Positions 20,051 through 53,431 of a stretch of 64,000 nt of DNA are shown one piece after another. The notes beneath the pieces were generated by a model. That model was not told the origin of the DNA and did not search any database. It saw nothing but the letters and a program-made list of their open reading frames with translations. Positions within the stretch are counted from its first letter, which is position 1. Each line of letters begins with the position of its first letter. The DNA is from Candidatus Ryanbacteria bacterium RIFCSPLOWO2_12_FULL_44_26 (GTDB lineage: Bacteria > Patescibacteriota > Minisyncoccia > Ryanbacterales > HO2-45-13): NCBI GenBank assembly GCA_001821765.1, contig MHOA01000013.1, positions 15,456 through 79,455 of the forward strand, given 5' to 3'. Both the position numbers and the translations under genes were made by a program.

Positions 20051-20071
20051 ATCCTGTTAGAGATCCAAGTT

Positions 20072-20173
20072 TTATGAATTTCGTTTTTCAAATGAGCGGC
20101 GCATATCCAAGAATGATGTTTACTGGCAATTATCATTCACGGAAATTTCCGATTTCCTATCTCTAATATAATG
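20072..20173 (+). repeat. Copy B of the conserved ~105-nt intergenic element
   Basis: TTATGAATTTCGTTTTTCAAATGAGCGGCGCATATCCAAGAATGATGTTTACTGG...GGAAATTTCCGATTTCCTATCTCTAATATA-ATG. The hairpin is shortened to GGAAAT/ATTTCC. Confidence 0.7.
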
Positions 20174-29970: not shown

Positions 29971-29985
29971 ACGACATATTATAAC

Positions 29986-30693: not shown

Positions 30694-30870
30694 GTTTATT
30701 TAACGCGTGAATACTTGTCTGCTGTTTTGGGTGTATCAAAGTGAAGGGTTGTCATCGAATAGGTGTTATCTTCGAAAAAGCGGTTTTTTTCGGATTTGGT
30801 TCCATGCCATGTCTTATTAGGACTTTCCGAATTTCTTCCGCAGCCCTTTTAAGACAGAGTGCATTGAAAC

Positions 30871-32249: not shown

Positions 32250-32498
32250 ATGATGGCTTATATGAAGCTTTTTCAATACTTTACAGTTTTGATTATTCTT
32301 ATTGTTTCTTTTGTCTTTTTCTTCCCGAGAAATTCTTATGCATACCTTGATCCCGGAACATTCAGCTATTTCATACAGATGTTGGTTGCGGTGTTGGCTG
32401 GGATAGGTGTTGCGGTGAAAGTCTCTTGGACAAGTATTAAAGGCGTGTTTTTAAAATTATTTTCAAAAAAGAAACAGGATGAAAAAGATAGCGCGTGA
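32250..32498 (+). CDS. Small 2-TM membrane protein (hypothetical)
   Basis: Start chosen at MMAYMKLF. Two hydrophobic helices. The 3' end overlaps the downstream gene start by 20 nt, suggesting coupling. Confidence 0.3.
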   Translation: MMAYMKLFQYFTVLIILIVSFVFFFPRNSYAYLDPGTFSYFIQMLVAVLAGIGVAVKVSWTSIKGVFLKLFSKKKQDEKDSA

Positions 32499-35373: not shown

Positions 35374-36984
35374 ATGACGAGCCGAGCAACAAAATTTCGT
35401 GAACTTTTAAATTCCGGTAAGCTGGAGTTTCTTTGTGAAGCCCATAACGGTATTTCTGCAAAGATTGTTGAAGAAGCCGGTTTTAAAGGGATTTGGGCAA
35501 GCAGTCTCACCATTTCCGCAGCGATGGGCGTTCGCGACAATAACGAGGCAAGCTGGACACAGATTTTGGAGGTATTGGAATTTATGAATGATGCGACGAC
35601 CATTCCGATTTTGCTTGATGCGGATACGGGATACGGCAATTTTAATAACGTGAGGCGGCTGGTCAAAAAATTAGAACAGCGCAACATCGCCGCTGTATGT
35701 ATAGAGGACAAGCGGTTTCCGAAAACAAACAGTTTATTGGCGGGCGGACGTCAGGAGCTTGCGGATATTGATGAATTCTGCGGGAAAATTAAAGCGGCAA
35801 AAGATACTCAAACCAATCCGGATTTTTCTGTTATAGCTCGCGTTGAGGCTTTTATTGCGGGTTTAGGACTTGATGAGGCTTTAAAGCGTGCAGGCGCCTA
35901 TCATCGGGCAGGCGCAGACGGCATTTTGATTCACAGTAAATCCAAGAAACCTGATGAAGTACTCGCTTTTAAAAAAGAATGGGGAGATCGTTCCCCGGTG
36001 ATTATTGTACCGACCGCATATTATACAACCCCTGTTGAGGTTTTTGAGGAGGCAGGTTTCGGTATCGTCATCTGGGCAAATATGATTTTGCGAGGCGCTG
36101 TGAAGGCCATGAAGGAAGCATCAAGTCATTTAGCGCGAGAAAAATCCCTTCTTACCCTTGAAGATCATATTGTCCCCATTACGGAAATTTTCCGGCTTCA
36201 GGGGTCAGACGAGCTTAAATTTGCAGAGGAGCGTTATCTTCCAGTGGCTGGAGAACATGTCCGGGCTGTTATTCTTGCTGCGTCCCGCGGCAAAGAGTTT
36301 GGTTCCCTAACCGCTCAAAAGCCAAAAGCTCTTTTAGAGGTTGCCGGCAGGCCGATATTGTATAAACAAATAGACACGCTTCGCGAGATTGGCGTGAAAG
36401 ATGTTACGGTAGTGCGCGGGTTTCAAAAAGAAATGATCAACGCTCCACGCATTCGTTATATTGACAATGATGAATACGAAAGCACACAAGAAGTTGTTTC
36501 GTTATGGAAAGGAGTTCAAAACACGTCAGGAAAAACCATCATCGCATACGGCGACATTCTGTACAAAAAATATATACCCACCACCCTTCTTGAAACGGAC
36601 GGCGATTTTGTTATTGCTGTTGATTCGGACTGGAAGTCAAGTTATGAGAAAGGGCGCTATGCAGATTTTGTTTCCTGTTCCGAGCCTTATCAGAAGAAGG
36701 TGTTTGATCAAAAAGTATGGCTGAAGGACATGGGGACAACCCTTGCGCGCGATAGTATTTGCGGAGAGTGGATTGGCCTTCTTTCGGTTTCTGCCGGAGG
36801 CCTTGAAACGCTTCAAAACGTACTTGGAGATTTATCTAAGAAAGATGACTTTGGAAAAATGCGTATGGCCGAACTTTTTCGCGAGCTTATCAAACGAGGA
36901 CATGAAATGAAGGTGTTATATATTCTCGGACACTGGCTTGATGTAGATGACATTATGGATCTTAGCGAGGCCAGTGTGTTCTAG
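35374..36984 (+). CDS. pepM: Phosphoenolpyruvate mutase fused to a C-terminal nucleotidyltransferase (phosphonate cytidylyltransferase-like) domain
   Basis: The N-terminal half carries the PEP mutase motif [12 protein letters not shown] (EDKxxxKxNS) and [10 protein letters not shown]. The C-terminal half has [32 protein letters not shown], an NTP-transferase fold. Confidence 0.85.
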
Positions 36985-36993
36985 TTTGCGTAT

Positions 36994-38127
36994 ATGCTTC
37001 AATGTGACGCGTTTTATAATTTATTAAAAAAACATGGCATAACTTTTTTTACTGGTGTTCCGGATTCGCTTTTAAAAGATTTCTGCGCATACGTGGCGGA
37101 TCATACGGATCCTAAAAATAATATTGTCGCCGCTAATGAAGGAGGGGCAGTTGCTTTGGCTGCAGGACATCATTTGGCAACAGGAAACATTGGTTTGGTG
37201 TATATGCAAAATGCAGGCGTGGGCAATGCTGTAAACCCTCTTGTGTCTCTTGTTGACGGGGAAGTGTACAGTATTCCGGTTCTTTTATTTATTGGATGGA
37301 GGGGAGAGCCGGGCGTAAAGGACGAGCCGCAGCATATAAAGCAAGGCAGGATTACCATCCCTTTATTGGAAGTTCTCGGAATTCCGCACGAAGTGCTCCC
37401 GGATGTTTTTGAGGAAGCAAAACGCGTCTTAAAAAAAGCAGTTGGTTCTATGACCCAAAGAAGCGCTCCCTACGTATTCATTATAAGAAAAGGCATCTTT
37501 GAGCCCTACCTCTTAAAGAAAAAAGAATATTCCTCGTATAAACTTACGCGGGAGCGCGTTATCCAGTCCATTGCCGGGCAATTGGACAACAGAGACATTG
37601 TCATCAGCACAACCGGAAAAACATCCAGGGAACTGTTTGAATATAGAGAAAGGGTTGGGCAAGATCATTCAACAGATTTTTTGACTGTTGGGTCCATGGG
37701 GCATGTCTCTCAAATCGCGCTTGGTCTTGCTTTATCAAAACCAAAAAGAAACGTTTATTGTTTGGATGGTGATGGTTCTCTCATCATGCATATGGGTTCT
37801 TTGGCCATAAATGGCACACGAGCGCCTAAAAACTTTAAGCATATTGTCTTAAATAACGGAGCGCATGACTCTGTCGGGGGACAGCCGACTGCCGGTTTTA
37901 AGATTGACATTGTTTCTATTGCTAAGGCATGTGGTTATAAGGCAGCTTTTGCGGCGGAAGTGGAAAACGAACTTCTAGAAAAGATACATACACTTAAAGA
38001 AACGGCAGGACCTGTATTGTTGGAGGTGAGAATCAATACGGGAAGCCGCAAAGACCTCGGACGACCGACAATAGATCCTAAAGAAAGTAAAAAGGCATTT
38101 ACAAAATTTCTTCAGGATAATGATTAG
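36994..38127 (+). CDS. ppd: Phosphonopyruvate decarboxylase (TPP-dependent)
   Basis: TPP-binding GDGSLIMHMGSL...NNGAHDSVGGQ. About 375 aa. Immediately downstream of pepM. Confidence 0.85.
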   Translation: MLQCDAFYNLLKKHGITFFTGVPDSLLKDFCAYVADHTDPKNNIVAANEGGAVALAAGHHLATGNIGLVYMQNAGVGNAVNPLVSLVDGEVYSIPVLLFIGWRGEPGVKDEPQHIKQGRITIPLLEVLGIPHEVLPDVFEEAKRVLKKAVGSMTQRSAPYVFIIRKGIFEPYLLKKKEYSSYKLTRERVIQSIAGQLDNRDIVISTTGKTSRELFEYRERVGQDHSTDFLTVGSMGHVSQIALGLALSKPKRNVYCLDGDGSLIMHMGSLAINGTRAPKNFKHIVLNNGAHDSVGGQPTAGFKIDIVSIAKACGYKAAFAAEVENELLEKIHTLKETAGPVLLEVRINTGSRKDLGRPTIDPKESKKAFTKFLQDND

Positions 38128-39253
38128 AGAATATTTCGGAGTAGGGAGCATAGAAAATGTAAGATTGATATTAGCTGGTGTTGCTCCAAGGAGCATTTTT
38201 CTTGTTACGGGAAAAAGATCCTATGACGATTGTGGTGCCAGCAAGGCGCTTGGAAATTTATTGGCGGAATATTCAGTGTCTCGGTTTAATGATTTTGATG
38301 TCAATCCAAACATAGATAACATCCGGAAAGGGGTTGATCTGTTTAAAAAAAAGAGATGTGATCTTGTTATCGCTGTCGGTGGTGGGAGTGTTATGGATAC
38401 CGCAAAGGTTGTAAACATTCTTTCAGCGCACGATGAAGACGCGGCGCTGTACGTTAAAAAGGAAAGAAAAATACGGTGCAGCGGAAAACCTCTCGTTGCC
38501 GTTCCGACGACTGCTGGTTCCGGTGGTGAGGCGACGCATTTTGCCGCTCTTTATATTGATAAAAAAAAATATTCTCTTGAAGATGAGCGTCTATTGCCCA
38601 CGTATGCGATTATAGATCCGCAGTTTACTTTTTCTCTCCCAAAAAGAATTACCGCGTCAACTGGCATGGACGCGCTTTCACAGGCAATAGAATCATATTG
38701 GAGTATTTATTCATCCGATGAGTCAAAAGCGTATGCAAGAGAAGCAATTATGCTTGCGCGGGAACATATTGTACATGCCGTCAATCAGCCGACAATAGAA
38801 GCGCGAATTGCGATGAGCAGGGCGGCGCATGCGGCGGGAAAGGCGATTAATACTACCAGGACAACGGCATGTCATGCCGTTTCTTATCCTATAACGGCGT
38901 ATTTCGGCGTTCCGCACGGTCATGCTGTTGGTCTTACGCTTTCGCGCATGTTTGCGTACAATAGTACTCCAAGCGAGGCAGATATTTTAGATATAAGGGG
39001 AGTGGCATATGTGAAAGGTGTTATGCGGGAACTCGCTGTGTTGTTGGGAGCTCAAGACACAGAAAGCGCCAAGAAAGCAATAGATTCCATAATGAGAAAG
39101 ATTGGACTTGAAATGCATTTGCGCGAGTTAGGAATCAGCGGCAATGATATTGAAATAATCATAAAAAACGGTTTTGACCCTGAAAGAGTAAAAAACAACC
39201 CACGGCTTGTAACCGAACAGGCCCTTAGAAAAATATTAAACGATATTCGTTAG
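38120..39253 (+). CDS. Iron-containing (group III) alcohol dehydrogenase, probable phosphonoacetaldehyde reductase
   Basis: GGGSVMDTAKVV motif plus His-rich Fe-binding region. Its position after ppd mirrors FomC/PhpC. Confidence 0.65.
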   Translation: MIREYFGVGSIENVRLILAGVAPRSIFLVTGKRSYDDCGASKALGNLLAEYSVSRFNDFDVNPNIDNIRKGVDLFKKKRCDLVIAVGGGSVMDTAKVVNILSAHDEDAALYVKKERKIRCSGKPLVAVPTTAGSGGEATHFAALYIDKKKYSLEDERLLPTYAIIDPQFTFSLPKRITASTGMDALSQAIESYWSIYSSDESKAYAREAIMLAREHIVHAVNQPTIEARIAMSRAAHAAGKAINTTRTTACHAVSYPITAYFGVPHGHAVGLTLSRMFAYNSTPSEADILDIRGVAYVKGVMRELAVLLGAQDTESAKKAIDSIMRKIGLEMHLRELGISGNDIEIIIKNGFDPERVKNNPRLVTEQALRKILNDIR

Positions 39254-39264
39254 TCCGCGTTTTA

Positions 39265-40026
39265 GTGAATATGAAAGCCATTATTATAGCAGCGGGATTG
39301 GGGAGCCGGCTCGCCCCGCTGACGGAGCATAAGCCAAAGTGCCTGTTGGATGTGGGCGGAAAAAGCATTCTTCAACGTCAACTTGATACTCTTCGTTCAG
39401 CTGATATACACAATATATCTCTTATTAAAGGATATAAAAAAGAACAGATACACTTTCCGGATCTTAAGTATTATGTAAATGATAATTACAGGAACAATAA
39501 CATACTTTATTCTCTGATGAGCGCGGAGGATGAGATGGATTCGGAATTTATTGCACTTTATGCAGACATAATCTTTACCAGCGAGGTCGTCGAGGAGTTG
39601 AAACGGTGTACGGCAGACATAGCCATTGTTGCCGATATTGCTGATCGTAAGTATTATGATGGGTGGGTCGATCATCCCACAGAAGAGGTGGAAAACATCA
39701 TCTTTGATGATGATCACAATGTTATTGCCATAGGCAAGCATATTACCGCACCCGCCGAGTTCATCGGTATGTTGAAATGTACAAGGAGAGGCGCTAAAGT
39801 TTTTAAGGATTATTTTCATAGAGCGCAAAAAGAATTTTCCGGCAAACCTTTTATGCGCTCAAGCGTATTTGAGAAAGCCTATCTTACCGATTTTATCCAA
39901 TATCTTACGGACAACGGCGTAAAAGTTAAGTGCGTTCTTATTAAACAGGGATGGTATGAAATAGACACGATTCAAGATTTAGAAATGGTCAATAGCATAT
40001 TTAAGAAAGCGCGCAGCCATGTCTGA
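39265..40026 (+). CDS. Nucleotidyltransferase (LicC/phosphocholine-cytidylyltransferase-like)
   Basis: MKAIIIAAGLGSRLAPLTEHKPKCLL N-terminal NTP-transferase motif. Confidence 0.6.
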   Translation: MNMKAIIIAAGLGSRLAPLTEHKPKCLLDVGGKSILQRQLDTLRSADIHNISLIKGYKKEQIHFPDLKYYVNDNYRNNNILYSLMSAEDEMDSEFIALYADIIFTSEVVEELKRCTADIAIVADIADRKYYDGWVDHPTEEVENIIFDDDHNVIAIGKHITAPAEFIGMLKCTRRGAKVFKDYFHRAQKEFSGKPFMRSSVFEKAYLTDFIQYLTDNGVKVKCVLIKQGWYEIDTIQDLEMVNSIFKKARSHV

Positions 40027-42414: not shown

Positions 42415-43341
42415 ATGCGCACGCTAAAACAACCGAAAGTCAGCATTCTCTTGCCCTCATATAATAGAGCTTACTTGTTACCTTTCACGATAGAGAACAT
42501 TCTTGAACAAACGTGGAAGGATTGGGAGCTCATTATTGTTGATGACGGGTCGCTTGATAATACTGATGAGGTAATAAAAAATTTCGATGATCGAAGGATA
42601 ACATATATAAAACACCAAGTAAATGCAGGTGAGGCTGCTGCAAGAAACACAGCTCTTGCTGCGGCGAGAGGAGAATATATCGCAAACCAAGATTCAGATG
42701 ACGAATGGTTCCCCGAGAAGCTGGAGGAGGAGGTGTATTTGCTTGATCGATCACCGGCGAGAGTTGGTGCTGTGTATTCTTCGTTTCATAAAACCTTATT
42801 TGACGGAAGCGAAGAAATTGTTCCTTCAGCAATTCACCACCAAAAAGAAGGAAACCTTGTAAACACTTTTTTACGCAGCGACTTTTATATCACTGGACAA
42901 GCTCTCCTAATTAAAAAAGAGTGCTATAAGAACGTTGGTGGATATGATGAGAAATTGCGCGTGCTTAATGATGCTGAGTTTCTTATAAGGTTAGCAAGTC
43001 AATATGAATTTGTTCATAATCCTCACGTTCGTGTTCGTATAAAACGTTTTGAAGACAGTATTTCGAGAAACTTTAAGATGAGATTGGTTTCCAGAGAGTA
43101 TATTTTGCACAAACACGAAGATCTTTTTAAAAAATTCCCCGACTCATTTGCCCGTTACTCATATCGCATAGGGCACACGCATGCACTTTTGGGGAATACA
43201 GACAAAGCGCGCATGTATCTCCGCAAAGCGTTTGTTTTTAGTCCTCTCCATATAAAATATATCGCGGCATTTTTGCTTTCCCTTACCGCTTCATCATGGC
43301 TGTACCGGACGCTCGGTCGTCTTAAAACCAAATGGATGTAA
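42415..43341 (+). CDS. Glycosyltransferase family 2
   Basis: VSILLPSYNRAYLL...LIIVDDGSLDNT...DSDDEW (DxD). Confidence 0.8.
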   Translation: MRTLKQPKVSILLPSYNRAYLLPFTIENILEQTWKDWELIIVDDGSLDNTDEVIKNFDDRRITYIKHQVNAGEAAARNTALAAARGEYIANQDSDDEWFPEKLEEEVYLLDRSPARVGAVYSSFHKTLFDGSEEIVPSAIHHQKEGNLVNTFLRSDFYITGQALLIKKECYKNVGGYDEKLRVLNDAEFLIRLASQYEFVHNPHVRVRIKRFEDSISRNFKMRLVSREYILHKHEDLFKKFPDSFARYSYRIGHTHALLGNTDKARMYLRKAFVFSPLHIKYIAAFLLSLTASSWLYRTLGRLKTKWM

Positions 43342-44885
43342 CCATAGCAATGAAGAAATGTATCATTCATCCGTATCTTTTTGCGGTTTTTCCCATTGTT
43401 TTTCTTCTCGCGCATAATATCGAACAGACATTTTTCAGCAATATAATTGTTCCGGCGCTCTTTGCCGTTTTTATTACTGTTTTTATCTTCGTCATCCTGC
43501 GTTTTAGTGTTGGGGATAATAAAAAGGCAGGACTCATTACATCTTTATTTCTCATACTGTTCTTTTCTTTCGGCCATATTCGCCGTTTGGTCGAAGATTT
43601 CGTGATAGGAGGACTTGATATAGGAAGAGACCGACATATCCTTTTATTCTCTGCAGCAATTTTTGTTTTGGCAACATATTGGATATTGCAGACCAAAAAA
43701 AAACTGCACAATCTCACCACAGTTGCAAATGTAATGGCTGTTACGCTGGTTATTATCCCGCTTGTCAGTATCGGGATGTATGAATTTAAGCGGAGCCCGG
43801 AAACCGAGTTTCCGAGTGAAAACTTGGTTTCCGATTCGGACGGAGCGTTAAAGAAACATGAGGCGCTTCCCAACATATATTACATAATTTTGGATGGCTA
43901 CGCGGCCCAGAGCACTCTGAAAGAAATTTATAATTACGATAATGCGGCATTTCTTCAATTCCTTGCAGAAAGGGGGTTTTTTGTCGCAGACGAGTCGAGG
44001 AGTAACTACACACAGACTTTTTTGTCGCTTTCCTCATCGCTCAATATAAGGTACATTAACGACCTAACCGAGAAGGTTGGAATGGATTTACAAAACCGCG
44101 CAATCCCATATCAGATGATCGAAGACAACACCATATGGCGCTTCTTAAACTCACGGGGATACCGGTTTATACATATAAGCTCCGGTTCTACCGAGATGAC
44201 AGATAAGAATGGAAACGCAGATATTAATTTTAAGGGCGGCAAATTGGACGAATTTTCCTTGACCTTATTAGAGACAACAGCGCTTTACCCGTTTATAAGG
44301 CACTCGGTTGAGGCAGATGCAAGAGAACGCGTTTTATATTCTTTTGATTCGTTGGCCAGAATATCCCGTCTTTCAGGTCCTAGGTTTACGTTTGCGCATA
44401 TTCTTGTGCCACATTCTCCTTATGTTTTCGGGCCGAACGGCGAAAAAGTTGAAAATCCCAAATTGCAGCTTTCCGGAGACAATTATTGGAAATTCAAAGA
44501 ACATTATGTAAATCAAGTGATCTTTACTAATAAGAAAATCATGGCACTCGTTGAGGCAATATTAAAAACTGAAAAAAATCCCCCGATTATTATTCTTCAG
44601 GGGGATCATGGTCCTGCTTCCGAAGGCGAGGGCACAAAAGGTCTTTCTCTTCTCAAACATATACTCGTTAAGGAGCGGATGAAAATATTTAATGCTTATT
44701 ATCTTCCAGTGGATGGCAATAAGCTTTTGTACAAATCAATAACTCCGGTAAATTCTTTCCGGCTTATTTTCAGTCATTATTTTGGAGCTGATTATCCGCT
44801 TCTTGAGGACGAGAGTTATTTTTCTACTGAGGAAGAGCCTTATACATTTATTAATGTAACCGATATAGCAAGAGAGGATTATTAA
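43332..44885 (+). CDS. Membrane-anchored alkaline-phosphatase-superfamily protein (LtaS/sulfatase/phosphoethanolamine-transferase-like), copy 1
   Basis: Five N-terminal TM helices. NIYYIILDGYAAQS is a metal-site-like block and ILQGDHGPAS is the C-terminal GDHG motif of the AP superfamily. Confidence 0.5.
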   Translation: MDVTIAMKKCIIHPYLFAVFPIVFLLAHNIEQTFFSNIIVPALFAVFITVFIFVILRFSVGDNKKAGLITSLFLILFFSFGHIRRLVEDFVIGGLDIGRDRHILLFSAAIFVLATYWILQTKKKLHNLTTVANVMAVTLVIIPLVSIGMYEFKRSPETEFPSENLVSDSDGALKKHEALPNIYYIILDGYAAQSTLKEIYNYDNAAFLQFLAERGFFVADESRSNYTQTFLSLSSSLNIRYINDLTEKVGMDLQNRAIPYQMIEDNTIWRFLNSRGYRFIHISSGSTEMTDKNGNADINFKGGKLDEFSLTLLETTALYPFIRHSVEADARERVLYSFDSLARISRLSGPRFTFAHILVPHSPYVFGPNGEKVENPKLQLSGDNYWKFKEHYVNQVIFTNKKIMALVEAILKTEKNPPIIILQGDHGPASEGEGTKGLSLLKHILVKERMKIFNAYYLPVDGNKLLYKSITPVNSFRLIFSHYFGADYPLLEDESYFSTEEEPYTFINVTDIAREDY

Positions 44886-44888
44886 CGT

Positions 44889-46289
44889 ATGAACAGTGAT
44901 TACTACGTCATAAGCGGCATTGTTGTTCTTGCTCTTGTGGTGGCGCTTGTTGTTGCTTTGGAGACCGGCGCGATCTCCGATATTTTCACACCCATTGCAA
45001 AGGCAACAACGGGTTCCGCTTCGCCCCAGCACAGTCAGGTTCGCGAGGCAGTAAGTTTTTTGAATACAGGGACGTTTAATAACGGCGGCCCAGGCTACAC
45101 CGGCATGCAGAGGGGCCCGGTCTACCCTTTGGTTTTGGCCGCCGTTTTTTCACTTTTTGGATTATATGTAGGAGCTATTCATATCATCAATTTTTTATTT
45201 TTAGCACTCGCAATTGTTTTCTTATGGCGTTTAAGCAAACAATATTTTAAGGGCGGATGGGAGTTTATTCCTCCCCTGGCGCTTGTCCTTGTTGGAAGGG
45301 CAACAGCACGGGTCTGGGTTGCAAGCTATGAAACGCTTACTCTTTTTTTGTCTATCCTCGCAATCTTTGCTTTTTTGGAATATCGCAGCACCGGAAAGAC
45401 TGTGTGGCTAGTGACCGGTACAGCCGCTTTTTCCTTATGGGTCCTTGAGAAACCGGCCGCTTTTTATTTCATTCCGGTTATTCTTGTTTTTTTAGTCTTA
45501 TGGCGGCGTCCTTATGCTTCGCCAAAAAAGGTTTTAACCCATTCGCTTATTTTTCTTTTTGTTACGGCAGCTTTTATCGGCTCATGGTCATTAAGAAACC
45601 ACAGGGTCATAGATACATGGCAGTTAGGCAGCGGCGGCCACGCAGTATTGCTTAGTTCCAGTCAGGTTGATTTTAATCGTGAAGAGCTTGTCTCATTGGG
45701 ACTTAGTTTGTCGGTTGGCGATTTTATTGGCAGCAGAATTTACAAACACTACCCGCAAAACGCAAAGCCAAAAGCGTGGGACCCATCGATTCTTGACGAT
45801 CGATGGTATCAGCAGGGATGGTATGTAAAAGATATTGACGGCAGTATTATTACAAAAACAGAGCTGGATAAAAGAATGTATGCAGAAGCGGTACAAAATA
45901 TCAAGCGCCGTCCAATGAAGTTTCTTTTAACAGGTATTTTCAAATTTATGCGTCTCAATGCTCCAGAAAACCATCGCGGGCAGGAGATCACACATCTTTT
46001 TGTTGGAACATATTTAGAAATTCCGACAGCAGTGAAAGCGGCGATTATCCTTTTTATTCGCATCATATGGTTCATGTTTCTTGTTGTTGTTCTTTATGCC
46101 ATGATAAAGCACATAAGGGACTGGAGTACTTGGGGAATTTTATTTTTAGTGATATTCTATTACAACGGCGCGCATGCGTTACTTACACATGCGCTGGCGC
46201 GCTATATCTTGGTTATACTTCCTTTTTACTTCATTTTCTTTACGGAAGGAGTGCGCATCTTATATGGAAAATACACGGAGGCAAGATAA
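44889..46289 (+). CDS. GT-C fold PMT_2/ArnT-like glycosyltransferase (membrane), copy 1 of a duplicated pair
   Basis: Polytopic. TGTFNNGGPGYTGMQRGPVYPLVLAAVF. Paralogous to 50898..52328. Confidence 0.55.
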   Translation: MNSDYYVISGIVVLALVVALVVALETGAISDIFTPIAKATTGSASPQHSQVREAVSFLNTGTFNNGGPGYTGMQRGPVYPLVLAAVFSLFGLYVGAIHIINFLFLALAIVFLWRLSKQYFKGGWEFIPPLALVLVGRATARVWVASYETLTLFLSILAIFAFLEYRSTGKTVWLVTGTAAFSLWVLEKPAAFYFIPVILVFLVLWRRPYASPKKVLTHSLIFLFVTAAFIGSWSLRNHRVIDTWQLGSGGHAVLLSSSQVDFNREELVSLGLSLSVGDFIGSRIYKHYPQNAKPKAWDPSILDDRWYQQGWYVKDIDGSIITKTELDKRMYAEAVQNIKRRPMKFLLTGIFKFMRLNAPENHRGQEITHLFVGTYLEIPTAVKAAIILFIRIIWFMFLVVVLYAMIKHIRDWSTWGILFLVIFYYNGAHALLTHALARYILVILPFYFIFFTEGVRILYGKYTEAR

Positions 46290-47016
46290 AGAAAAAACAT
46301 TTTTGGTGGTACTGCCGGTTTATAATGAAGAAACAGATTTATCAAAAAATTTTCCCGTTGTACACCGCTTTTTAGATGAACATTTTGATCAGCTTCATTG
46401 GGAAGTCATTATTGCCGAACAGGCATCAACTGACCACACATTGGAAATCGCCCAAAAACTTTCGCAAAACTATCCAAGGACATCATGTATTCACTTAGAT
46501 GAAAAGGGGAGAGGCGGGGCATTGCGGGAGGCCTGGACCGGATCTGACGCCGATGTCGTTTCCTATATGGACATTGATCTTTCATCTCGTCTTGAATTTT
46601 TCCCAAAGCTTATGTATGTCCTTCAAGGCGGCGCTGATATTGCAGTGGGATCTCGTTTATCGAAAGGATCAAAAGTGCATGATCGGACTCTTGTGAGGAA
46701 ATTTTCTTCATGGGCTTTTAAGTTTTTTTTAAAAACATTGTTTCGTATCAGATTTGACGATGCCCAGTGCGGCTTTAAGGCCATAAGAAGAGATGTTTTT
46801 TTAAAAATCGCTCCTTTGATCAAAAGCAACGGATGGGTGTTTGATACCGAACTGCTTGTCATTGCCCAGAAAGCCCGTTTCAGTATTGCCGTTGTGCCGA
46901 TTGAATGGTTTGATGATCAGAAAAGCAGTGTAAGAATCATCCGTTATGCGCTGGAGGGCTTCACCGCGGGATTGCGGCTTTTTATAACACGGCCATGGAA
47001 GAGCATTACGAAATAA
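46264..47016 (+). CDS. GT2 polyprenyl-phosphate sugar synthase (DPM1-like)
   Basis: FLVVLPVYNEETDL...VIIAEQASTDHT...YMDIDLS...AVGSRL. Start set at MENTRRQ; the 5' end overlaps the upstream gene by 26 nt. Confidence 0.75.
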   Translation: MENTRRQDKEKTFLVVLPVYNEETDLSKNFPVVHRFLDEHFDQLHWEVIIAEQASTDHTLEIAQKLSQNYPRTSCIHLDEKGRGGALREAWTGSDADVVSYMDIDLSSRLEFFPKLMYVLQGGADIAVGSRLSKGSKVHDRTLVRKFSSWAFKFFLKTLFRIRFDDAQCGFKAIRRDVFLKIAPLIKSNGWVFDTELLVIAQKARFSIAVVPIEWFDDQKSSVRIIRYALEGFTAGLRLFITRPWKSITK

Positions 47017-47729
47017 AATACCACCAACTTGAAAAAGACGGCTGGTGGTTTTTAGCAAGAAGAGACATTATTTTACGGTTGTTTACAGAGATACCGAAAC
47101 ATTCCAGTATTTTGGATATCGGTTGTTCGGGAGGTGTATTGCTTTTGGATCTGGCGCGCGAGGGATTTTCAGATACGTATGGGATTGATATTAGTAAGCG
47201 TGCCATTCAGAAATGTAAAGATCAGGGTATAGAGAATGTGAAAGTTGCTGACGGGCGCGAGACAGGATATCAGGACGGTTTCTTTGATATCGTTATTGCT
47301 TCAGATACATTGGAGCATATCCATAACGAACACAAAGCGCTTGGTGAGTGGCAGCGCATTTTAAAAACCGGCGGTATTGCGATTATCTTTGTCCCGGCAC
47401 ATATGTTTTTATGGGGTAAGCACGACGAAATAAACCAGCATATCAAACGTTACAGCAAAGCAGATTTTAAAAACGCAGTGCAAAAGAGCGGTTTTGAAAT
47501 AGCACGAATTGGGTATTGGAATTTTCTTTTGTTTTTTTCGGCGTGTATTGCAAAAATGTTAGAACATCTCAAACTTAAAAAGAGCGGTACTCCGGAAGAA
47601 ATACTTACCGCCAAAGGACTGTTTCATGCTTTGCTTTTCAAGGTTCTTGCGTTTGAGAACCGGCTTATCGGAGTCGGCTTTCGATTTCCCGTTGGCATGA
47701 GTCTTTTTTGCGTTGCCAGAAAAAAGTAA
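46995..47729 (+). CDS. Class I SAM-dependent methyltransferase
   Basis: ILDIGCSGGVLLLDLAREGF (motif I) and FDIVIASDTLEHI (motif II). Confidence 0.75.
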   Translation: MEEHYEIKYHQLEKDGWWFLARRDIILRLFTEIPKHSSILDIGCSGGVLLLDLAREGFSDTYGIDISKRAIQKCKDQGIENVKVADGRETGYQDGFFDIVIASDTLEHIHNEHKALGEWQRILKTGGIAIIFVPAHMFLWGKHDEINQHIKRYSKADFKNAVQKSGFEIARIGYWNFLLFFSACIAKMLEHLKLKKSGTPEEILTAKGLFHALLFKVLAFENRLIGVGFRFPVGMSLFCVARKK

Positions 47730-47758
47730 ATGCCCGTCTAAATATCGCTGTTGGCTTT

Positions 47759-48118
47759 TTATGTATGGTTTTGGTAGATGTTGCCGATGATTTCAAGCGG
47801 CTTTTTTTTGTCAATATTCCAGCCGCAACGCTCATCATTCCACGTTACTGAAATCATATTGCCATTAGATTGGTCTTTCACAATATCTCCTTCATAAATC
47901 TCTTTTCCATGCCCATCTTTTAGTCCTATGTACTGCATGAGGATCATGTTTTCCCCGTCTTGTCTTACCAAACTTCCTAACTTAAATTCAATTATATAAT
48001 TCAAACGGTACTCTTCGTTCCTATTCATCGTTGACAAATTAAATGACAGCGTATTTACCATTGTCATTTCTTTGTGTTGTTTATCCCAAGCTCTGAATTT
48101 AATGTCTCTATAAGGCAT
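47759..48118 (-). CDS. YopX-like phage-associated protein
   Basis: IKFRAWDKQHKEM...MQYIGLKDGHGKEIYEGDIV...EIIGNIYQN matches the YopX domain consensus. Confidence 0.5.
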   Translation of the reverse strand: MPYRDIKFRAWDKQHKEMTMVNTLSFNLSTMNRNEEYRLNYIIEFKLGSLVRQDGENMILMQYIGLKDGHGKEIYEGDIVKDQSNGNMISVTWNDERCGWNIDKKKPLEIIGNIYQNHT

Positions 48119-48125
48119 GTTCCGT

Positions 48126-48425
48126 TTATTTTTTGCTCTCTATGATGAGTATACGTGTATAAGCAGAACCCATGTTTTCAATGGCGTGCATTTCAACGGG
48201 ATCGTGATGAGTGATACCGCGCTCTTTTCCGCTCATAATTTTGGAACTGCCATCCGGGAAATAGGCTCGAAGGTTAAAATCAGTTAAAGCGTAGATGGTA
48301 AACTGTGGATGGGAATGCATCTCGTCTTTTTGGCCCGGCCACCATTGCGCATCAATTACGCGAACATGGTCATTTTCAAAAATGACTTGGTATACTTCCG
48401 GAGATACGCTGATTGGATCCGTCAT
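48126..48425 (-). CDS. Small cupin-domain protein
   Basis: 99 aa with His-containing cupin motifs (EMHSHPQF...HAIENMG). Confidence 0.4.
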   Translation of the reverse strand: MTDPISVSPEVYQVIFENDHVRVIDAQWWPGQKDEMHSHPQFTIYALTDFNLRAYFPDGSSKIMSGKERGITHHDPVEMHAIENMGSAYTRILIIESKK

Positions 48426-48498
48426 TTATAAAACATGAAAGACTTCTAATATCAAACCTTTTGGCCATGTTAGCATGATCCCGTGAGAGATTACAGGT

Positions 48499-48604
48499 TT
48501 ATACATTTCGTTTACCAGATAAGCATTGCACATTCAGAAATCATGTCTACTGATCATTATAATGCACGGAAATGCCTTCAGCATTTCCTGTCTTTAACGG
48601 GATA
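48499..48604 (+). repeat. Copy C of the conserved ~105-nt intergenic element (no start codon follows)
   Basis: TTATACATTTCGTTTACCAGATAAGCATTGCACATTCAGAAATCATGTCTACTGATCATTATAATGCACGGAAATGCCTTCAGCATTTCCTGTCTTTAACGGGATA. The ATG has become ATA. It lies between two minus-strand genes. Confidence 0.65.
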
Positions 48605-48655
48605 CCTCCTGTCTTATGTGCATAGTGTGTCACGTATAATGTAAATAGTTAGATG

Positions 48656-49315
48656 TTAATCTGTCATGTTTTGTTTTTGGTGGGATGAAAGTCTCAATTT
48701 CTCCAAAATAAAAAAACGATGACGGGGGTTTTCAAAAACCCGGTAAGTTCGTAAAATTTTAAAACCCGAGTCTTTTATATCCTGTAAAATTTTCTTTAAA
48801 CTGTAACCCTTTTGCCCTATTTCCCAAAAGTGCCCTTTAAAAAGGGGCTTTTTTGGAGGCCAAAGGTATGGCAGAGAAATAAGTTTTTTTACCTTTGTTA
48901 CTTTTGGAACAGGCACTTCAAAGCGCAGGGAACGATTCGCTTCAGGGAGTGAAATAATAACCCACCGGGAAGACACCTTGTGTAGTTCTCTCAACGCCTT
49001 GAGTGCCTCTTGGTAGGGCATATGCTCCAGTACCTCATACGCTGTTACAGCTTCAAAGGAGTTTTTATCAAATGGCAGATGTATTATTGATGCCGTGTAG
49101 TCCGCAGACAATGTTTGATCGTTATCACAAGTAGTGATGTTCACGCCGTGATGTTTGAGATACTGCGACACAAAGCCATTGCCAATTCCTATCTCCAAAA
49201 CGCTTGAAGGATGCAAAACAAGCACTTCGTTAATCTGATGCCAGTAACTGATGAAGCGCTGTTTTGAGTCGTACTCTCGTCGTTGATAATAATGAGAATC
49301 AATTTTAGTGGCCAC
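48656..49315 (-). CDS. Class I SAM-dependent methyltransferase
   Basis: VLEIGIGNGFVSQYL (motif I) and AVTAYEVLEHM. Confidence 0.7.
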   Translation of the reverse strand: MATKIDSHYYQRREYDSKQRFISYWHQINEVLVLHPSSVLEIGIGNGFVSQYLKHHGVNITTCDNDQTLSADYTASIIHLPFDKNSFEAVTAYEVLEHMPYQEALKALRELHKVSSRWVIISLPEANRSLRFEVPVPKVTKVKKLISLPYLWPPKKPLFKGHFWEIGQKGYSLKKILQDIKDSGFKILRTYRVFENPRHRFFILEKLRLSSHQKQNMTD

Positions 49316-49320
49316 ACTGT

Positions 49321-50895
49321 GTGTATATCACAGCTTATGCTATGATGTCCATTATGTCAAAAAAGCTATGGATACTGCATCCGTTTCTTTTTGCAGTTTT
49401 TCCAGTTCTTTTTCTTTTGTCTCATAATATTTATCAAACAGCGCCGCAAGCCGCTGTTATTCCGGCCATACTCGTATTATTCGCTACCGTAATTATCTTC
49501 AGAGCGCTGCTTTTTTTCTTAAAAGACGGCGGGAAATCCGCGTTTATTACATCTTTTTTTCTTTTGATATTTTTTTCCTTTGGGCATGTCAGAAATACTG
49601 TAGAAAACGTTACGATAGCGGGACTGGATATTGGAAGAAATCGTTATGTTTTTTTAATATTTGCTTTGCTTTTCGTTTTAAGCGTTTTTTGGACTGTTCT
49701 TACAAAGAAAAATTTAGATAAGTTTACGAATGTTGTAAACGTTATAGCCGCCGTGCTGGTCGCCATCTCTATTATAAACATCGGGATGTATGAGTTGAGG
49801 CATGGCAGGACTGCCAGAAGTATAGAAAACACAACTGTTTATGAATCAGACGGGAAATTTAAAAATCAAGGCGCCTTGCCGAATATCTATTATATTATTT
49901 TAGACGGATACGCCGCAGCGGATACACTGAGCGAGATTTATAGTTACGATAATAGTGAATTTCTTGCCTTTCTTGCCGATCGCGGTTTTTTTGTTCCAAG
50001 TAAGTCAAGGAGCAATTATGCATGGACCCATTTGTCTCTCGCTTCTTCTTTAAACATGGAACATATTACTTTTTTAACTGATACTCTCGGTATAGATTCT
50101 CTGGACCGGACTACTCCGTTTCAGATGATCGAAGACAACGCTGTGCAGGAGTTTCTAAAGGCCAATGATTATAAATTTATTCATGTAAGTTCGGGTTTGG
50201 CGCGCATGACCAATAAAAATCGAAATGCAGAGGTTAATTTTAAAGCTGGTCGTCTGGATGAATTTTCCTTGTTACTGCTGGAAACAACTGCTCTTTATCC
50301 GTTTATGAAGGGCGCGGTTGGCGTTGATGCAAGAAACACGGTACTGTATGCGTTTGATGTTCTAAAACACGTACCAAAGTTGCCGGGCCCTCGGTTTACA
50401 TTCGCGCATATTCTCATTCCCCATCCAGTCTATCTTTTTGGTCCTAATGGCGAGGCAATTCAGGATCCAACGGCAGGTCTGTCTGGTTATAATCGCTGGA
50501 AGTTAAAAGATTATTATGTTAATCACGTAATTTTTACGAATAAGAAGGTGCGCGAAGTCGTGGATGCTATTTTACAAGAAGAGTCAACGCCGCCGATTAT
50601 TCTGCTTCAGGCGGATCACGGAACGCTTTCAGAAGGCGATGAATATGAGAATTTCTCGAGCATTACCGATCGTCTTGCAAAAGAGCGCATGAAAATATTC
50701 AGCGCTTATTATCTGCCGGGCGACGGCAAAGATATGCTCTATGATTCAATAACTCCGGTAAACTCCTTTAGGATTATTTTTAATCATTACTTTGGGACGG
50801 AGTATCCTTTGTTGGCAGATGAAAGTTATATATCTTCAGATAAACAACCATATGGTTTTATCAATGTTACCGATATAACGAGCGAGCCGTATTAA
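49321..50895 (+). CDS. Membrane-anchored alkaline-phosphatase-superfamily protein (LtaS/sulfatase-like), copy 2
   Basis: About 60% identical to 43332..44885. NIYYIILDGYAAAD and LLQADHGTLS. Confidence 0.5.
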   Translation: MYITAYAMMSIMSKKLWILHPFLFAVFPVLFLLSHNIYQTAPQAAVIPAILVLFATVIIFRALLFFLKDGGKSAFITSFFLLIFFSFGHVRNTVENVTIAGLDIGRNRYVFLIFALLFVLSVFWTVLTKKNLDKFTNVVNVIAAVLVAISIINIGMYELRHGRTARSIENTTVYESDGKFKNQGALPNIYYIILDGYAAADTLSEIYSYDNSEFLAFLADRGFFVPSKSRSNYAWTHLSLASSLNMEHITFLTDTLGIDSLDRTTPFQMIEDNAVQEFLKANDYKFIHVSSGLARMTNKNRNAEVNFKAGRLDEFSLLLLETTALYPFMKGAVGVDARNTVLYAFDVLKHVPKLPGPRFTFAHILIPHPVYLFGPNGEAIQDPTAGLSGYNRWKLKDYYVNHVIFTNKKVREVVDAILQEESTPPIILLQADHGTLSEGDEYENFSSITDRLAKERMKIFSAYYLPGDGKDMLYDSITPVNSFRIIFNHYFGTEYPLLADESYISSDKQPYGFINVTDITSEPY

Positions 50896-50897
50896 GC

Positions 50898-52328
50898 ATG
50901 GCAAGAGAATATTACACTATTACTGGCATTCTTGTTGTTGCAATTTTTGTTGTCGGAATTGTTGGTTTTATTAACAGCGGTGTCATATATACGCTTCCGA
51001 AATCGCTCCACGAACCTGACGCGGGTCCGGTTGATCCTTCCAGAGGATTTATAGGCACCGCGATCAGCCTTGTTCATACCGGAACGTTTAATAATAGAGG
51101 TCCGGGTTATATCGGGAACGGGCAACGCGGCCCGGCGTACGCGGTGGTGCTCGCGCTCGGTTTTCTCATGTTTGGGGAATATGTCTGGCCCGTCTATTTG
51201 ATGAACTTTATCTTTCTTGCGCTTGTGATTATTCTTCTTTGGCGTCTTAGCCGGCGTTATCTTGACGGATATTTGGCATTTCTCCCGCCATTAATGCTTG
51301 CTGTATTTCCTTTTTCTGCGCATCAGGTATATGGGCGTTATGAATTATTTTCATTATTTTTAGGAGTTTTTTCCGTTTTCGCTTTGCTCAAATACCGTGA
51401 GCATAAGGGGTTTTTATGGCTTTCAGTCGGCACACTTATATTTACAGTTTGGATTCTTGAAAGGCCAATAGTGCTTTATTTTTTACCTTTGGTATTGATG
51501 TTCCTTGTATTCTGGCAGCGGTCTTCTTTATCAATAAGCCGTCTTCTTGTGCATATGCTCCTGTTCTTTTTCATAATCGGTTCAGTGATAGGTTTATGGG
51601 CATGGAGAAATCATCGTGTGCTCGATACATGGCAAATAGGGTCGGGCGGCCACATGCTGCTTCGGACTGCCATGCACACCGATCGCACAAGCAAGGAGCT
51701 TATATCGCTTGCGTTAAGTTATGGAGTTGGAGATTTTATCGGGAGCAGGGTGTACGCGCATTATCCAGAAAACGCGGCTCCCTCCGGCTGGATTCATTCG
51801 CTTGAAGATCGCTGGGTGCAGAAAGACGAATGGATAGTAGAGGATCTAGATGGTGAGATTCTTACACGTGTAGAGCTTGATAAAAAAATGTATCGGGAAG
51901 CATTTTTAAAAATAAAGGAGCGCCCGGTCAAATTTGTTCTTACGGGTTTTATCCGGCTTATACGTCTTAACGCTCCTTTAAACCACAGAGGACAGGAGAT
52001 CATAAGAATGTTTATGGGAGAGTATCAATATCTTTCTTCGGGTATGAAAATAATGATAATCCTTGCGATTCGTCTTATTTGGCTTTTCTTTCTCACTTTG
52101 GTGCTTTATGCAATAGCAAGACATTGGAGAGAATGGGAAACATGGGGGATTTTGATTCTTCTTTTACTTTATTATAACAGCATGCATGCATTACTTACTC
52201 ACGGAGAAGCGCGTTACGTAGTAACTGTAATGCCCTTCTATTTTCTCCTTTTTGCGGAAGGGTTTCGATTATTTTATTCCAAAATAAAGCTAAGGCGTAA
52301 CTTATTGGCCGCTCCAGGATCCTTGTAA
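50898..52328 (+). CDS. GT-C fold PMT_2/ArnT-like glycosyltransferase (membrane), copy 2
   Basis: Paralog of 44889..46289 (HTGTFNNRGPGYIGNGQRGPAYAVVLALGF). Confidence 0.55.
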   Translation: MAREYYTITGILVVAIFVVGIVGFINSGVIYTLPKSLHEPDAGPVDPSRGFIGTAISLVHTGTFNNRGPGYIGNGQRGPAYAVVLALGFLMFGEYVWPVYLMNFIFLALVIILLWRLSRRYLDGYLAFLPPLMLAVFPFSAHQVYGRYELFSLFLGVFSVFALLKYREHKGFLWLSVGTLIFTVWILERPIVLYFLPLVLMFLVFWQRSSLSISRLLVHMLLFFFIIGSVIGLWAWRNHRVLDTWQIGSGGHMLLRTAMHTDRTSKELISLALSYGVGDFIGSRVYAHYPENAAPSGWIHSLEDRWVQKDEWIVEDLDGEILTRVELDKKMYREAFLKIKERPVKFVLTGFIRLIRLNAPLNHRGQEIIRMFMGEYQYLSSGMKIMIILAIRLIWLFFLTLVLYAIARHWREWETWGILILLLLYYNSMHALLTHGEARYVVTVMPFYFLLFAEGFRLFYSKIKLRRNLLAAPGSL

Positions 52329-52340
52329 ATGCGCTTTCCT

Positions 52341-53261
52341 TTACTTTTCTATAGTTTCCCGGATCATGTATGGCCGCTCTTTTTTGCTCTCGTAGTAAAC
52401 CCGGAGCATGAGTTCGGCTATGAAGCCGAGCATAAATAGAAGAAAACCCAAAATAAAGAAAAGGACCGCAACAACAGGAAGTGGTGTTTGTGCAAAATTT
52501 ACCCCCCGTAGTTTTAAAACTATGGCATAGATCGTTGCCGAGATTCCAGCTGCGGTCGAAGCTATGCCCCACCCGCCAAAAAATAACATAGGACGGGACA
52601 TATAATCAGACAGGAACTTTACTGTCAGTAGATCTCCAATGTCTTTTATGGCTTTCATGAAATTGTGCTTTGAGGCGCCGGCGGCACGCTCGTTATGTTG
52701 TACTATCATTTCAACAACACGCGCACCGCGGTTGTGGAGAATGCCGGCAAGCAGAACATGCATCTCTCCGTAAAGATTAAGCCCTCGCGCAAATTCTTTT
52801 TTAAACACTTTAAGGCCGCATGCATGGTCGTGGAGTTTCAGCCCCACAACTTTTGAAGTAAGCCAGTTCGCAAGTTTAGAGAGAACTTTTCTTGAGAGGG
52901 TGTCCATGCGGTTTTTTCTCCAGCCAACCACCGCGTCATATCCTTCTTTTAACTTTTTAAGCATTTTAGGTATGTCCGCAGGGTCGTTTTGCAAATCAGC
53001 GTCAAGAATCGCGATGATTTCTCCTTTGGCCGCTTGTATTCCCGCATCAAGCGCGGCAGTTTGTCCGTAGTTTCGCGAAAAGACAATAATTTTAATTGGA
53101 GAAAGGTTTTTCAGCATCTCAAGCGTATGATCGGTAGAGCCGTTTTCAACGGCAATAATTTCAAAGGTTTCTTCGTGCGAACGAAGCGCATCCGAGATTC
53201 TTATATAAAGCTCGCGCACATTTTCTTCCTCATTATATGCGGGGAAAATAACCGATATCAT
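52341..53261 (-). CDS. GtrB/ArnC-like GT2 polyprenyl-phosphate sugar synthase with C-terminal TM helices
   Basis: MISVIFPAYNEEEN...IIAVENGSTDHT...ILDADLQNDP, plus two C-terminal TM helices typical of GtrB/ArnC. Start set at MISVIF. Confidence 0.8.
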   Translation of the reverse strand: MISVIFPAYNEEENVRELYIRISDALRSHEETFEIIAVENGSTDHTLEMLKNLSPIKIIVFSRNYGQTAALDAGIQAAKGEIIAILDADLQNDPADIPKMLKKLKEGYDAVVGWRKNRMDTLSRKVLSKLANWLTSKVVGLKLHDHACGLKVFKKEFARGLNLYGEMHVLLAGILHNRGARVVEMIVQHNERAAGASKHNFMKAIKDIGDLLTVKFLSDYMSRPMLFFGGWGIASTAAGISATIYAIVLKLRGVNFAQTPLPVVAVLFFILGFLLFMLGFIAELMLRVYYESKKERPYMIRETIEK

Positions 53262-53431
53262 AGTCTCAACAATAAAAGAAAAAAACGCATTTTGCAATTT
53301 TTGTCACGGCGGTGTATCTCCAAAAAACTATCCTACAATAATACTGTCTTTCTTGTTTAGGGAAATGACGCTCTTATCAATTGTGAGGAGGTGAGAAATG
53401 CTACTTGCGCAGGCGCAAAAACGAGACAAGA

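Follow-up and report, generated by a model that had tools for sequence, protein, structure and literature searches.

What do two membrane proteins of the alkaline-phosphatase superfamily, each encoded next to its own glycosyltransferase, do in the surface-glycan locus of a bacterium with a reduced genome? The question arises from a 64-kb stretch of DNA, referred to here as the window, from Candidatus Ryanbacteria (Parcubacteria), a member of the candidate phyla radiation (CPR) or Patescibacteria group. The window is a cell-surface glycan locus with six PMT_2 GT-C genes, many GT1 and GT2 genes, sugar-nucleotide enzymes and a flippase; it also encodes a GDP-heptose-type pathway and a hydroxyethylphosphonate pathway. 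The gene pair in question was designated sulf (the membrane protein) and gtc (its GT-C partner), and the two occurrences of the pair were designated cassettes A and B. The answer that we favour, tentatively and on the strength of sequence and predicted structure, is that Sulf moves a phospho- or phosphono-head group, most likely 2-hydroxyethylphosphonate, onto a surface glycan, coupled to glycosylation from lipid-linked sugars.

Paralogy and age of the two cassettes

The cassettes occupy positions 43332-46289 and 49342-52328 and are collinear paralogous gene pairs. Protein identities had been put at about 60% and 50% in the first-pass annotation; the measured values were 57% for SulfA and SulfB (291/513 residues, gap-free) and 48% for GtcA and GtcB (227/469 residues). 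The limits given there for the first segment were retained. The second had been started at the GTG at 49321; the ATG at 49342 is the more likely start of sulfB, because public gene calls give a protein of 517 aa and the motif numbering is then equal in both copies. SulfB at this length is identical to public protein P0002. In public records from several Ryanbacteria metagenome-assembled genomes (MAGs) from the Rifle aquifer, the cassette proteins are named hypothetical, "Sulfatase N-terminal domain-containing" or "RgtA/B/C/D-like", the last being the UniRef name of GtcB. Consistent with the earlier view that the copies are not recent and near-identical, the DNA identity between the cassettes was 60.2% and the longest exact common word was 19 nt; an assembly duplication was therefore ruled out, and the identical layout recurs in independent public assemblies. 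Scans for promoters and terminators gave no signal above that of shuffled sequence.

A relative genome, GCA_964581395.1, was found to carry both cassettes in the same contexts. Its contig 71 (locus L084) encodes a TagF-like protein, a nucleotidyltransferase, three other genes, a phosphoenolpyruvate (PEP) mutase-nucleotidyltransferase (ppm-NTP), phosphonopyruvate decarboxylase (ppd), an iron-type alcohol dehydrogenase (Fe-ADH), Sulf, GT-C, GT2 and a methyltransferase, the genes from ppm to the methyltransferase forming one run with gaps of a few bases. Its contig 70 (L085) carries a methyltransferase gene (minus strand), sulf, the GT-C gene, a second methyltransferase gene and a GT2 gene (both minus strand), NifS, NifU, four other genes and heptose genes. 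Since approximately 91 nt are shared between the end of contig 71 and the beginning of contig 70, inside an open reading frame of the IS30-type helix-turn-helix kind, the two cassettes are probably adjacent in the relative as well; a repeated insertion sequence could yield the same overlap. The junction between the cassettes of the relative is probably occupied by an insertion sequence; in the window a YopX-domain gene, orf99 and a repeat copy are found there.

Each gene of the relative scored higher against whichever window copy has the same context. In neighbour-joining trees SulfB was grouped with protein P0006 (100% support), GtcB with P0124 (99%) and GtcA with P0122 (96%), and a B-type Sulf clade without SulfA had 78% support; for the GT-C proteins, the complete A and B clades were weakly supported (44% and 38%, respectively). 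A third A-type Sulf, encoded next to P0122, was nearer to SulfA than to SulfB, and proteins from other metagenomes were nearer to each copy than the copies were to each other. A sister pairing of SulfA and SulfB, obtained in the first family-wide neighbour-joining tree, was overturned by better alignments with close outgroups. The synteny in the relative and the trees indicate that the gene pair was duplicated before these lineages split, in agreement with the ancient duplication that had been proposed.

Fold, conserved residues and partners of the Sulf proteins

In the Pfam scan Sulfatase (PF00884) was the sole family reported for Sulf: SulfA scored 37.1 bits against a cut-off of 25, SulfB alone scored 17.3 bits, below the cut-off, and the EptA_B_N domain was absent. 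The AlphaFold (AF2) model of SulfA, with a mean local confidence (pLDDT) of 87.7, comprises five N-terminal transmembrane (TM) helices (residues 13-28, 35-60, 63-87, 100-120 and 126-153) followed by an alpha/beta domain. The loops contain 2, 0, 2, 1 and 3 Lys plus Arg residues; taken with the model, this distribution predicts by the positive-inside rule that the domain faces outwards. When the model was compared with the PDB by Foldseek, full-length MCR-1, EptC and EptA led the matches and were followed by carbohydrate sulfatases, PbgA and LtaS, all with a probability of 1.0; 162 chains were matched at E≤0.001, with TM-scores of 0.55-0.62 when normalised to the soluble-domain targets. Model, Foldseek and Pfam thus agreed with the five TM helices and alkaline-phosphatase-superfamily ectodomain that had been read from the sequence.

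At the level of sequence, neither phmmer nor a 43-sequence profile matched any PDB entry, and no NCBIfam model matched Sulf. The likeness to LtaS, EptA or MdoB claimed in the first-pass annotation therefore holds for the fold and not for sequence membership: by sequence comparison Sulf is not a member of LtaS, EptA or OpgB, and it forms a separate family within the alkaline-phosphatase superfamily, built like the lipid-dependent head-group transferases.

The metal ligands and nucleophile of such an enzyme were looked for among 43 homologues, and candidates, assigned by position and conservation and not from superposed coordinates, were found conserved at the expected places. Asp188, at the end of strand 1, was invariant (43/43); position 229, which opens helix 229-237, was Thr in 38 sequences and Ser in five; His356 and His361 were invariant; and Asp425 and His426 were kept in 42 and 40 sequences, respectively. 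SulfA and SulfB both keep every putative catalytic motif at the same residue numbers. The family motifs are SNYxxTFLSLASSLN, AHIxxPHPPY, QADHG and ITPVNTFR, with the putative first metal ligand in ILDGY; the C-terminal GDHG motif noted earlier is literal only in copy A, which reads QGDHG, as against QADHG in copy B and in the family consensus. Alignment by hhalign against E. coli EptA alone gave a probability of 0.4%, and against an EptA/B/C alignment 17% (E 0.0014), a weak result that serves as a consistency check only; it placed His361 on GSH and Asp425-His426 on DHG and left the nucleophile region unaligned. The A and B lineages are told apart by five positions, one of them Q228W beside the putative nucleophile, and this hints at different substrates for the two copies.

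The second gene of each cassette had been called a GT-C transferase, and both products pass the PMT_2 cut-off (PF13231; 26.1 bits). The GT-C model was of moderate quality (pLDDT 74), and its Foldseek matches were GT-C enzymes only (STT3, ArnT, PglB, Pmt and ALG9/12). The subfamily is small, with seven homologues in a word-indexed search and 75 representatives at E≤1e-30 in a full HMMER scan. The more distant relatives retain a loop-1 motif, DxxxYxxxAxxLxxGxF, the motif column being Asp in 25 of 50 relatives; GtcA, P0122 and P0126 read S-A-S-P/V in place of this Asp, and GtcB and P0127 have an Asp one column before it. Glu148 stays conserved (Glu in 42 and Asp in eight of the 50). Each GT-C gene is adjoined by its own DPM1/ArnC-type GT2 gene, and a methyltransferase gene also flanks each cassette.

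The Sulf family at large comprises at least 1,905 homologues, which are spread over numerous bacterial phyla and archaea and are, with few exceptions, named hypothetical. Its neighbourhoods were surveyed in 80 genome loci from other species (L003-L082), in none of which was the GT-C partner found, even at E≤10. Sulf with this GT-C was accordingly rejected as a family-wide unit; the pairing is limited to a small clade, and the majority of family members have another protein as partner. Immediately 5' of sulf and on the same strand, 51 of the 80 loci encode a conserved protein of approximately 460 aa (e.g. L005:8625-10001), with a kinase-like N-terminal half (LKDxxxxNIxF...IDT) and an S-adenosylmethionine (SAM) methyltransferase C-terminal half. 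Its mean column identity across phyla was 65%, no Pfam family scored above cut-off, and its similarities in the PDB were to plant phosphoethanolamine N-methyltransferase (weak) and the WbdD methyltransferase-kinase (non-significant). The window does not encode this partner. Duplication has recurred within the family: L014, L073, L075 and L077 (Ignavibacteriaceae and Anaerolineales MAGs) each carry three to five sulf paralogues in tandem.

Phosphonate genes and the proposed reaction of Sulf

The phosphonate genes of the window (Table 1) appear, from profile matches, to constitute the hydroxyethylphosphonate branch. Ppm is a true PEP mutase (TIGR02320, 376.9 bits against a cut-off of 319.55) with an EDKxxxxxNS-type motif at residue 111, and its fusion to a PF12804 nucleotidyltransferase is the commonest type of Ppm fusion (PMC8942020, PMC6697681). 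The best NCBIfam model for Fe-ADH was Phn_Fe-ADH (TIGR03405), at 203 bits against a cut-off of 423.7. A radical SAM/SPASM protein that matched no specific subfamily is encoded between the TagF-like gene and ppm (33769-35241, minus strand); no such gene was called between the corresponding genes of the relative. A gene of the CDP-alcohol phosphatidyltransferase family (6245-7093, minus strand), 28 kb from ppm, could make a phosphonolipid from a cytidine monophosphate (CMP)-phosphonate.

Comparative genomics gave strong support to the phosphonate side of the earlier suggestion, drawn from the nearby phosphonate operon, that phospho- or phosphono-alcohol groups are transferred to an envelope glycan. 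In the relative, sulf lies directly 3' of the Fe-ADH gene. The order ppm-ppd-adh-tagF-sulf was found in a Zixiibacteriota MAG (L062), ppm-ppd-adh-ntp-sulf in an unclassified bacterial MAG (L071) and ppd-sulf-tagF in a marine thaumarchaeote (L070). A true Ppm, with the EDKxxxxxNS motif, was encoded in four of the 80 loci, which total 1.11 Mb; approximately 0.016 Ppm genes would be expected there, an estimate based on the presence of Ppm in about 4% of bacterial genomes (PMC8942020) and an assumed genome of 3.5 Mb. Homologues of the TagF-like protein of the window adjoin Sulf in six other loci, at 334-488 bits in L023, L027, L031, L062 and L065 and at 124 bits in L070, where the copy is cut by the sequence end; the homologue in L084 scored 382 bits.

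The proposed pathway would run as follows. Hydroxyethylphosphonate, made by the adjacent Ppm, Ppd and Fe-ADH, would be activated as a CMP conjugate by the fused or the adjacent nucleotidyltransferase; either the TagF-like enzyme or the CDP-alcohol phosphatidyltransferase would then pass it to a lipid carrier. The GT2 enzyme would charge polyprenyl phosphate with a sugar at the cytoplasmic face, and GT-C would transfer the polyprenyl-linked sugar to a surface glycan or glycoprotein outside the membrane. Sulf would then add the phospho- or phosphono-head group via a covalent Thr229 intermediate; its donor should be lipid-linked, because nucleotide donors do not exist outside the cell. From the gene content, hydroxyethylphosphonate is the best-supported candidate head group for cassette A, and the acceptor or the head group probably differs between the two modules. 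Roughly half of the phosphonate pathways in microbes are believed to serve the decoration of cell surfaces (PMC8942020), and the steps of phosphonoglycan synthesis after CMP activation have been called enigmatic (PMC6697681). Our literature searches did not find a sulfatase-like gene in the Nitrosopumilus methylphosphonate cluster, newer phosphonate transferases, or, in the library searched, a paper tying CPR bacteria to PEP mutase. A sulfatase-like gene may have been noted in the Nitrosopumilus cluster in 2012.

A stronger claim, which we consider unlikely, is that Sulf is the missing extracytoplasmic phosphonyl transferase of phosphonoglycan synthesis: the TagF-like enzyme would load CMP-hydroxyethylphosphonate on a lipid and Sulf would move the group via a Thr-phosphonyl intermediate, with the same enzyme pair at work in the marine Thaumarchaeota whose clusters feed the methylphosphonate pool of the ocean. 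In its boldest form, Sulf or the TagF-like enzyme could polymerise hydroxyethylphosphonate into a phosphonate analogue of teichoic acid, which is conceivable because hydroxyethylphosphonate has one free hydroxyl.

Owing to its head-group-transferase architecture and its repeated place at the end of hydroxyethylphosphonate operons, the Sulf family is a concrete candidate for the step that attaches phosphonates to surface sugars, including in the marine thaumarchaeote. The two diverged Sulf copies, each with its own GT-C, suggest that a CPR bacterium with a reduced genome invests heavily in varied surface chemistry.

Several observations weigh against phosphonate transfer by Sulf. The 51 loci with the kinase-like/methyltransferase partner have no phosphonate genes nearby, and since most members lack such neighbours, phosphonate transfer cannot be the function of the whole family. 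The closest non-syntenic relatives of the window proteins adjoin a CotH-VTC-DUF4956 gene set and not ppm. Phosphorus chemistry is common to all three kinds of partner (the kinase-like/methyltransferase protein, the phosphonate genes and this gene set), in keeping with a broader function of Sulf in phosphoryl or phosphonyl transfer at the cell surface. In the window itself, Fe-ADH and sulfA are kept apart by approximately 4 kb of other genes, and cassette B is without a direct phosphonate neighbour. The whole Sulf family is known only from sequence and predicted structure, and its correspondence with EptA residues is drawn from conservation, secondary-structure position and the weak hhalign result (probability 17%). 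The GtcA lineage, which is without the loop-1 Asp, may be no ordinary glycosyltransferase. The lipid-linked phosphonate donor is hypothetical, and de novo lipid synthesis is generally considered to be absent from CPR bacteria.

Sulf could instead be an ordinary head-group transferase of the LtaS, OpgB or EptA kind, which would take phosphoglycerol or phosphoethanolamine from common, possibly host-derived, phospholipids to a surface glycan or polymer, the phosphonate genes being mere neighbours. The nearest folds are indeed phosphoethanolamine transferases and LtaS, and neither most family members nor cassette B have phosphonate genes beside them. Chance neighbourhood is difficult to reconcile with the presence of sulf directly behind ppm-ppd-adh in at least four distant lineages, far above expectation, and the motifs of Sulf are its own, with no sequence-level match to LtaS, EptA or OpgB; on balance this explanation also seems unlikely to us.

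The gene set found beside the close relatives, which encodes a CotH kinase, a VTC-type polyphosphate polymerase and a DUF4956 membrane protein, raises the prospect that Sulf works with these three proteins to add or process (poly)phosphate on extracellular glycans. The trio abuts sulf (with GT-C, methyltransferase and GT2 genes) in L091 and L092, brackets it in L089 and L090, is present in the window, and is known only as an accessory to the Pel loci for exopolysaccharide (PMC7112168). CotH homologues were, however, found near sulf in none of the 80 genome loci, the window trio is separated from sulfA by 11 kb and has the TagF-like and phosphonate genes for neighbours, and the function of the trio is itself uncharacterised; we judge this reading improbable. 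One of the close-relative loci also encodes a 971-aa fusion of cytidylyltransferase-like, PPDK_N and PEP-utilising domains (L089:14449-17364).

It is quite improbable that Sulf is instead a hydrolase (a phosphodiesterase, phosphonate-ester hydrolase or sulfatase) that trims or recycles surface groups. The Pfam Sulfatase match and the many sulfatases among the structural matches point that way, and alkaline-phosphatase-family enzymes have been proposed to free phosphonates from marine glycans (PMC8931226). The formylglycine sulfatase motif [CS]xPxR was nevertheless found nowhere in SulfA or SulfB, position 229 is Thr or Ser as in transferases, and the lipid-facing five-TM domain fits the full-length EptA/MCR-1 architecture; in addition, the neighbours are biosynthetic, and no phosphonate-catabolic family was matched among the window and locus genes scanned. 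That one or both Sulf copies act as partners that bind lipids or glycans without catalysis, in the manner of PbgA/YejM, with GtcA likewise non-enzymatic, is in keeping with PbgA among the structural matches and with the missing loop-1 Asp of the GtcA lineage and is highly improbable in view of the two Sulf copies having kept all putative catalytic residues at identical positions despite 57% identity.

Neighbouring genes and comparison with known systems

The genes between the cassettes had been described as a GT2 gene, two SAM methyltransferase genes and a YopX-like gene, all of which were confirmed by Pfam matches (Table 1), together with a small cupin and a decayed repeat copy. The cupin call on orf99 found no support above threshold in Pfam or PHROGs. 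The NCBIfam matches of GT2mid, whose real start is probably 46264, were weak, the best being AglJ (48 bits against a cut-off of 325) and dolichyl-phosphate hexose transferase; GT2R was matched by the ArnC model over positions 8-313 of 316 at 169 bits (cut-off 529). Co-duplication of GT2mid with GT2R and of mt1 with mt2 along with the cassettes was rejected, both pairs being 26% identical over partial alignments only.

Table 1. Position, strand and supporting evidence of the cassette genes and other features of the window
Feature	Position	Strand	Evidence or remark
DUF4956, VTC (polyphosphate-polymerase-type) and CotH-kinase trio	29299-32190	-	Beside TagF-like gene
TagF-like (Glyphos_transf) protein	32479-33636	+	Pfam 37.5 bits
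2-Hydroxyethylphosphonate pathway	35374-40026	+	Ppm, Ppd, Fe-ADH and nucleotidyltransferase genes
Ppm fused to PF12804 nucleotidyltransferase	35374-36984	+	TIGR02320
Ppd (phosphonopyruvate decarboxylase)	36994-38127	+	
Fe-ADH	38120-39253	+	
Second nucleotidyltransferase	39265-40026	+	
sulfA, cassette A gene 1, 517 aa, five TM helices and predicted extracytoplasmic alkaline-phosphatase-superfamily domain	43332-44885	+	Pfam, AF2, Foldseek, conserved residues
gtcA, cassette A gene 2, 466 aa, GT-C fold (PMT_2)	44889-46289	+	PMT_2 30.5 bits, Foldseek
GT2mid, Dol-P/polyprenyl-P-hexose synthase type, cassette A operon	46264-47016	+	Glycos_transf_2 77.7 bits
mt1, SAM methyltransferase, last gene of cassette A operon	46995-47729	+	Methyltransf_23 85.5 bits
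YopX-domain gene, phage-type	47759-48118	-	Pfam YopX PF09643 79.4 bits (cut-off 22.4); phrog_98 87.7 bits
orf99, 99 aa, no family assigned	48126-48425	-	Pfam and PHROGs all below threshold
Repeat copy C	48478-48603	.	Intergenic repeat of ~125 nt, closing 12-bp stem and inner 8-bp hairpin
mt2, SAM methyltransferase, divergent from sulfB, conserved cassette B flank	48656-49315	-	Methyltransf_11 40.9 bits
sulfB, cassette B gene 1, sulfA paralogue, same catalytic motifs and positions (putative)	49342-50895	+	57% to SulfA
gtcB, cassette B gene 2, gtcA paralogue	50898-52328	+	48% to GtcA; PMT_2 32.9 bits
GT2R, ArnC/PgfS-like GT2 (polyprenyl-phosphate sugar synthase architecture), convergent with gtcB	52341-53297	-	Glycos_transf_2 111.8 bits

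The proposal of a past insertion between the cassettes stood in part. Orthologues of GT2mid (342 bits) and mt1 (263 bits) follow in the same positions in L084 of the relative, and those of mt2 (230 bits, divergent from the sulfB-type gene) and GT2R (500 bits) lie in L085; because these orthologues occupy the same places, GT2mid and mt1 belong to the cassette A operon and mt2 to the cassette B flank, and are not inserted genes. No counterparts of YopX, orf99 or the repeat were found in L084 or L085, so these three alone look specific to this genome, and the variable spot is the junction between the two units.

The intergenic repeat of approximately 125 nt is present in three copies in the window (A, 2384-2509; B, 20051-20176; C, as listed). 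A stem of 12 bp (ATCYCGTTAGAG / CTCTAACGRGAT) closes the repeat and a hairpin of 8 bp (GGAAATGC-N5-GCATTTCC) lies within it; the folding z-scores on the plus strand were -3.2, -1.2 and -2.6 for copies A, B and C, respectively. Copy C is 84% identical to copy A with both stems intact and is less diverged than copy B (67%), which does not agree with its description as decayed. No Rfam family was matched; the repeat could be an element resembling a miniature inverted-repeat transposable element (MITE) or a structured RNA. Just 3' of copy A, a carbamoyltransferase, an SxtJ-like protein and a GDSL-type acylhydrolase are encoded in a row (2478-6013, plus strand). Two RtcB RNA-ligase paralogues lie side by side in the middle of the glycan locus (8918-10351 and 10388-11815, minus strand).

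Among characterised systems, Sulf most resembles EptA, EptC and MCR-1, its best Foldseek matches, with which it shares the five N-terminal TM helices, a predicted outward-facing alkaline-phosphatase-fold domain and the order and similar spacing of the putative site (an acidic ligand after strand 1, a Thr at a helix start, a His and an Asp-His). It differs from them in having only 11-12% identity, no profile-level sequence match and no EptA_B_N domain, in a first ligand that would be Asp (ILDGY) rather than Glu (GETxR), and in a context of phosphonate and glycan genes rather than lipid A. With LtaS and OpgB/MdoB it has in common a multi-TM anchor, an extracytoplasmic sulfatase-fold domain, a Thr nucleophile (putative in Sulf) and, as we would expect for Sulf, a lipid head group as donor; the five TM helices and extracellular catalytic domain of LtaS are also predicted for Sulf. 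The structural match is weaker than to the phosphoethanolamine transferases, with Listeria LtaS at rank 42, and there is no sequence membership. Type I (formylglycine) sulfatases differ in carrying at the nucleophile the C/S-x-P-x-R motif that SulfA and SulfB lack.

The pairing of each GT-C (PMT_2) with a DPM1/ArnC-type GT2 recalls the two-step glycosylation systems ArnC/ArnT, RgtE/RgtA-D, CsbB/YfhO and GtrB/Gtr; the GT-C proteins of the window differ from these in being small (approximately 470 aa), of a rare subfamily and, in the A lineage, without the loop-1 Asp, and a flippase gene was identified in neither cassette. In the luminal assembly of glycosylphosphatidylinositol (GPI) anchors, DPM1, GT-C mannosyltransferases and the ethanolamine-phosphate transferases PIG-N/O/G act on one glycan on the non-cytoplasmic side. 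The cassettes would bring together the same three enzyme classes, and GT-C enzymes of the GPI pathway occur among the Foldseek matches of the window GT-C model; the resemblance is an analogy, with homology at the superfamily level. In Pnt phosphonyl tailoring (PMC6697681), as in the window, a fusion of Ppm and a PF12804 nucleotidyltransferase lies inside a cell-surface glycan locus. The branch enzyme of the window is Fe-ADH, giving hydroxyethylphosphonate, in place of the 2-aminoethylphosphonate transaminase of that pathway, and the candidate transferases are the TagF-like protein and Sulf in place of LicD. The fold class and the logic of a lipid-linked sugar, a GT-C enzyme and an alkaline-phosphatase-type head-group transferase are known, and the novelty lies in the Sulf family itself, in its repeated occurrence within phosphonate operons and in the partnership, in a CPR genome, with a rare subfamily of GT-C proteins.

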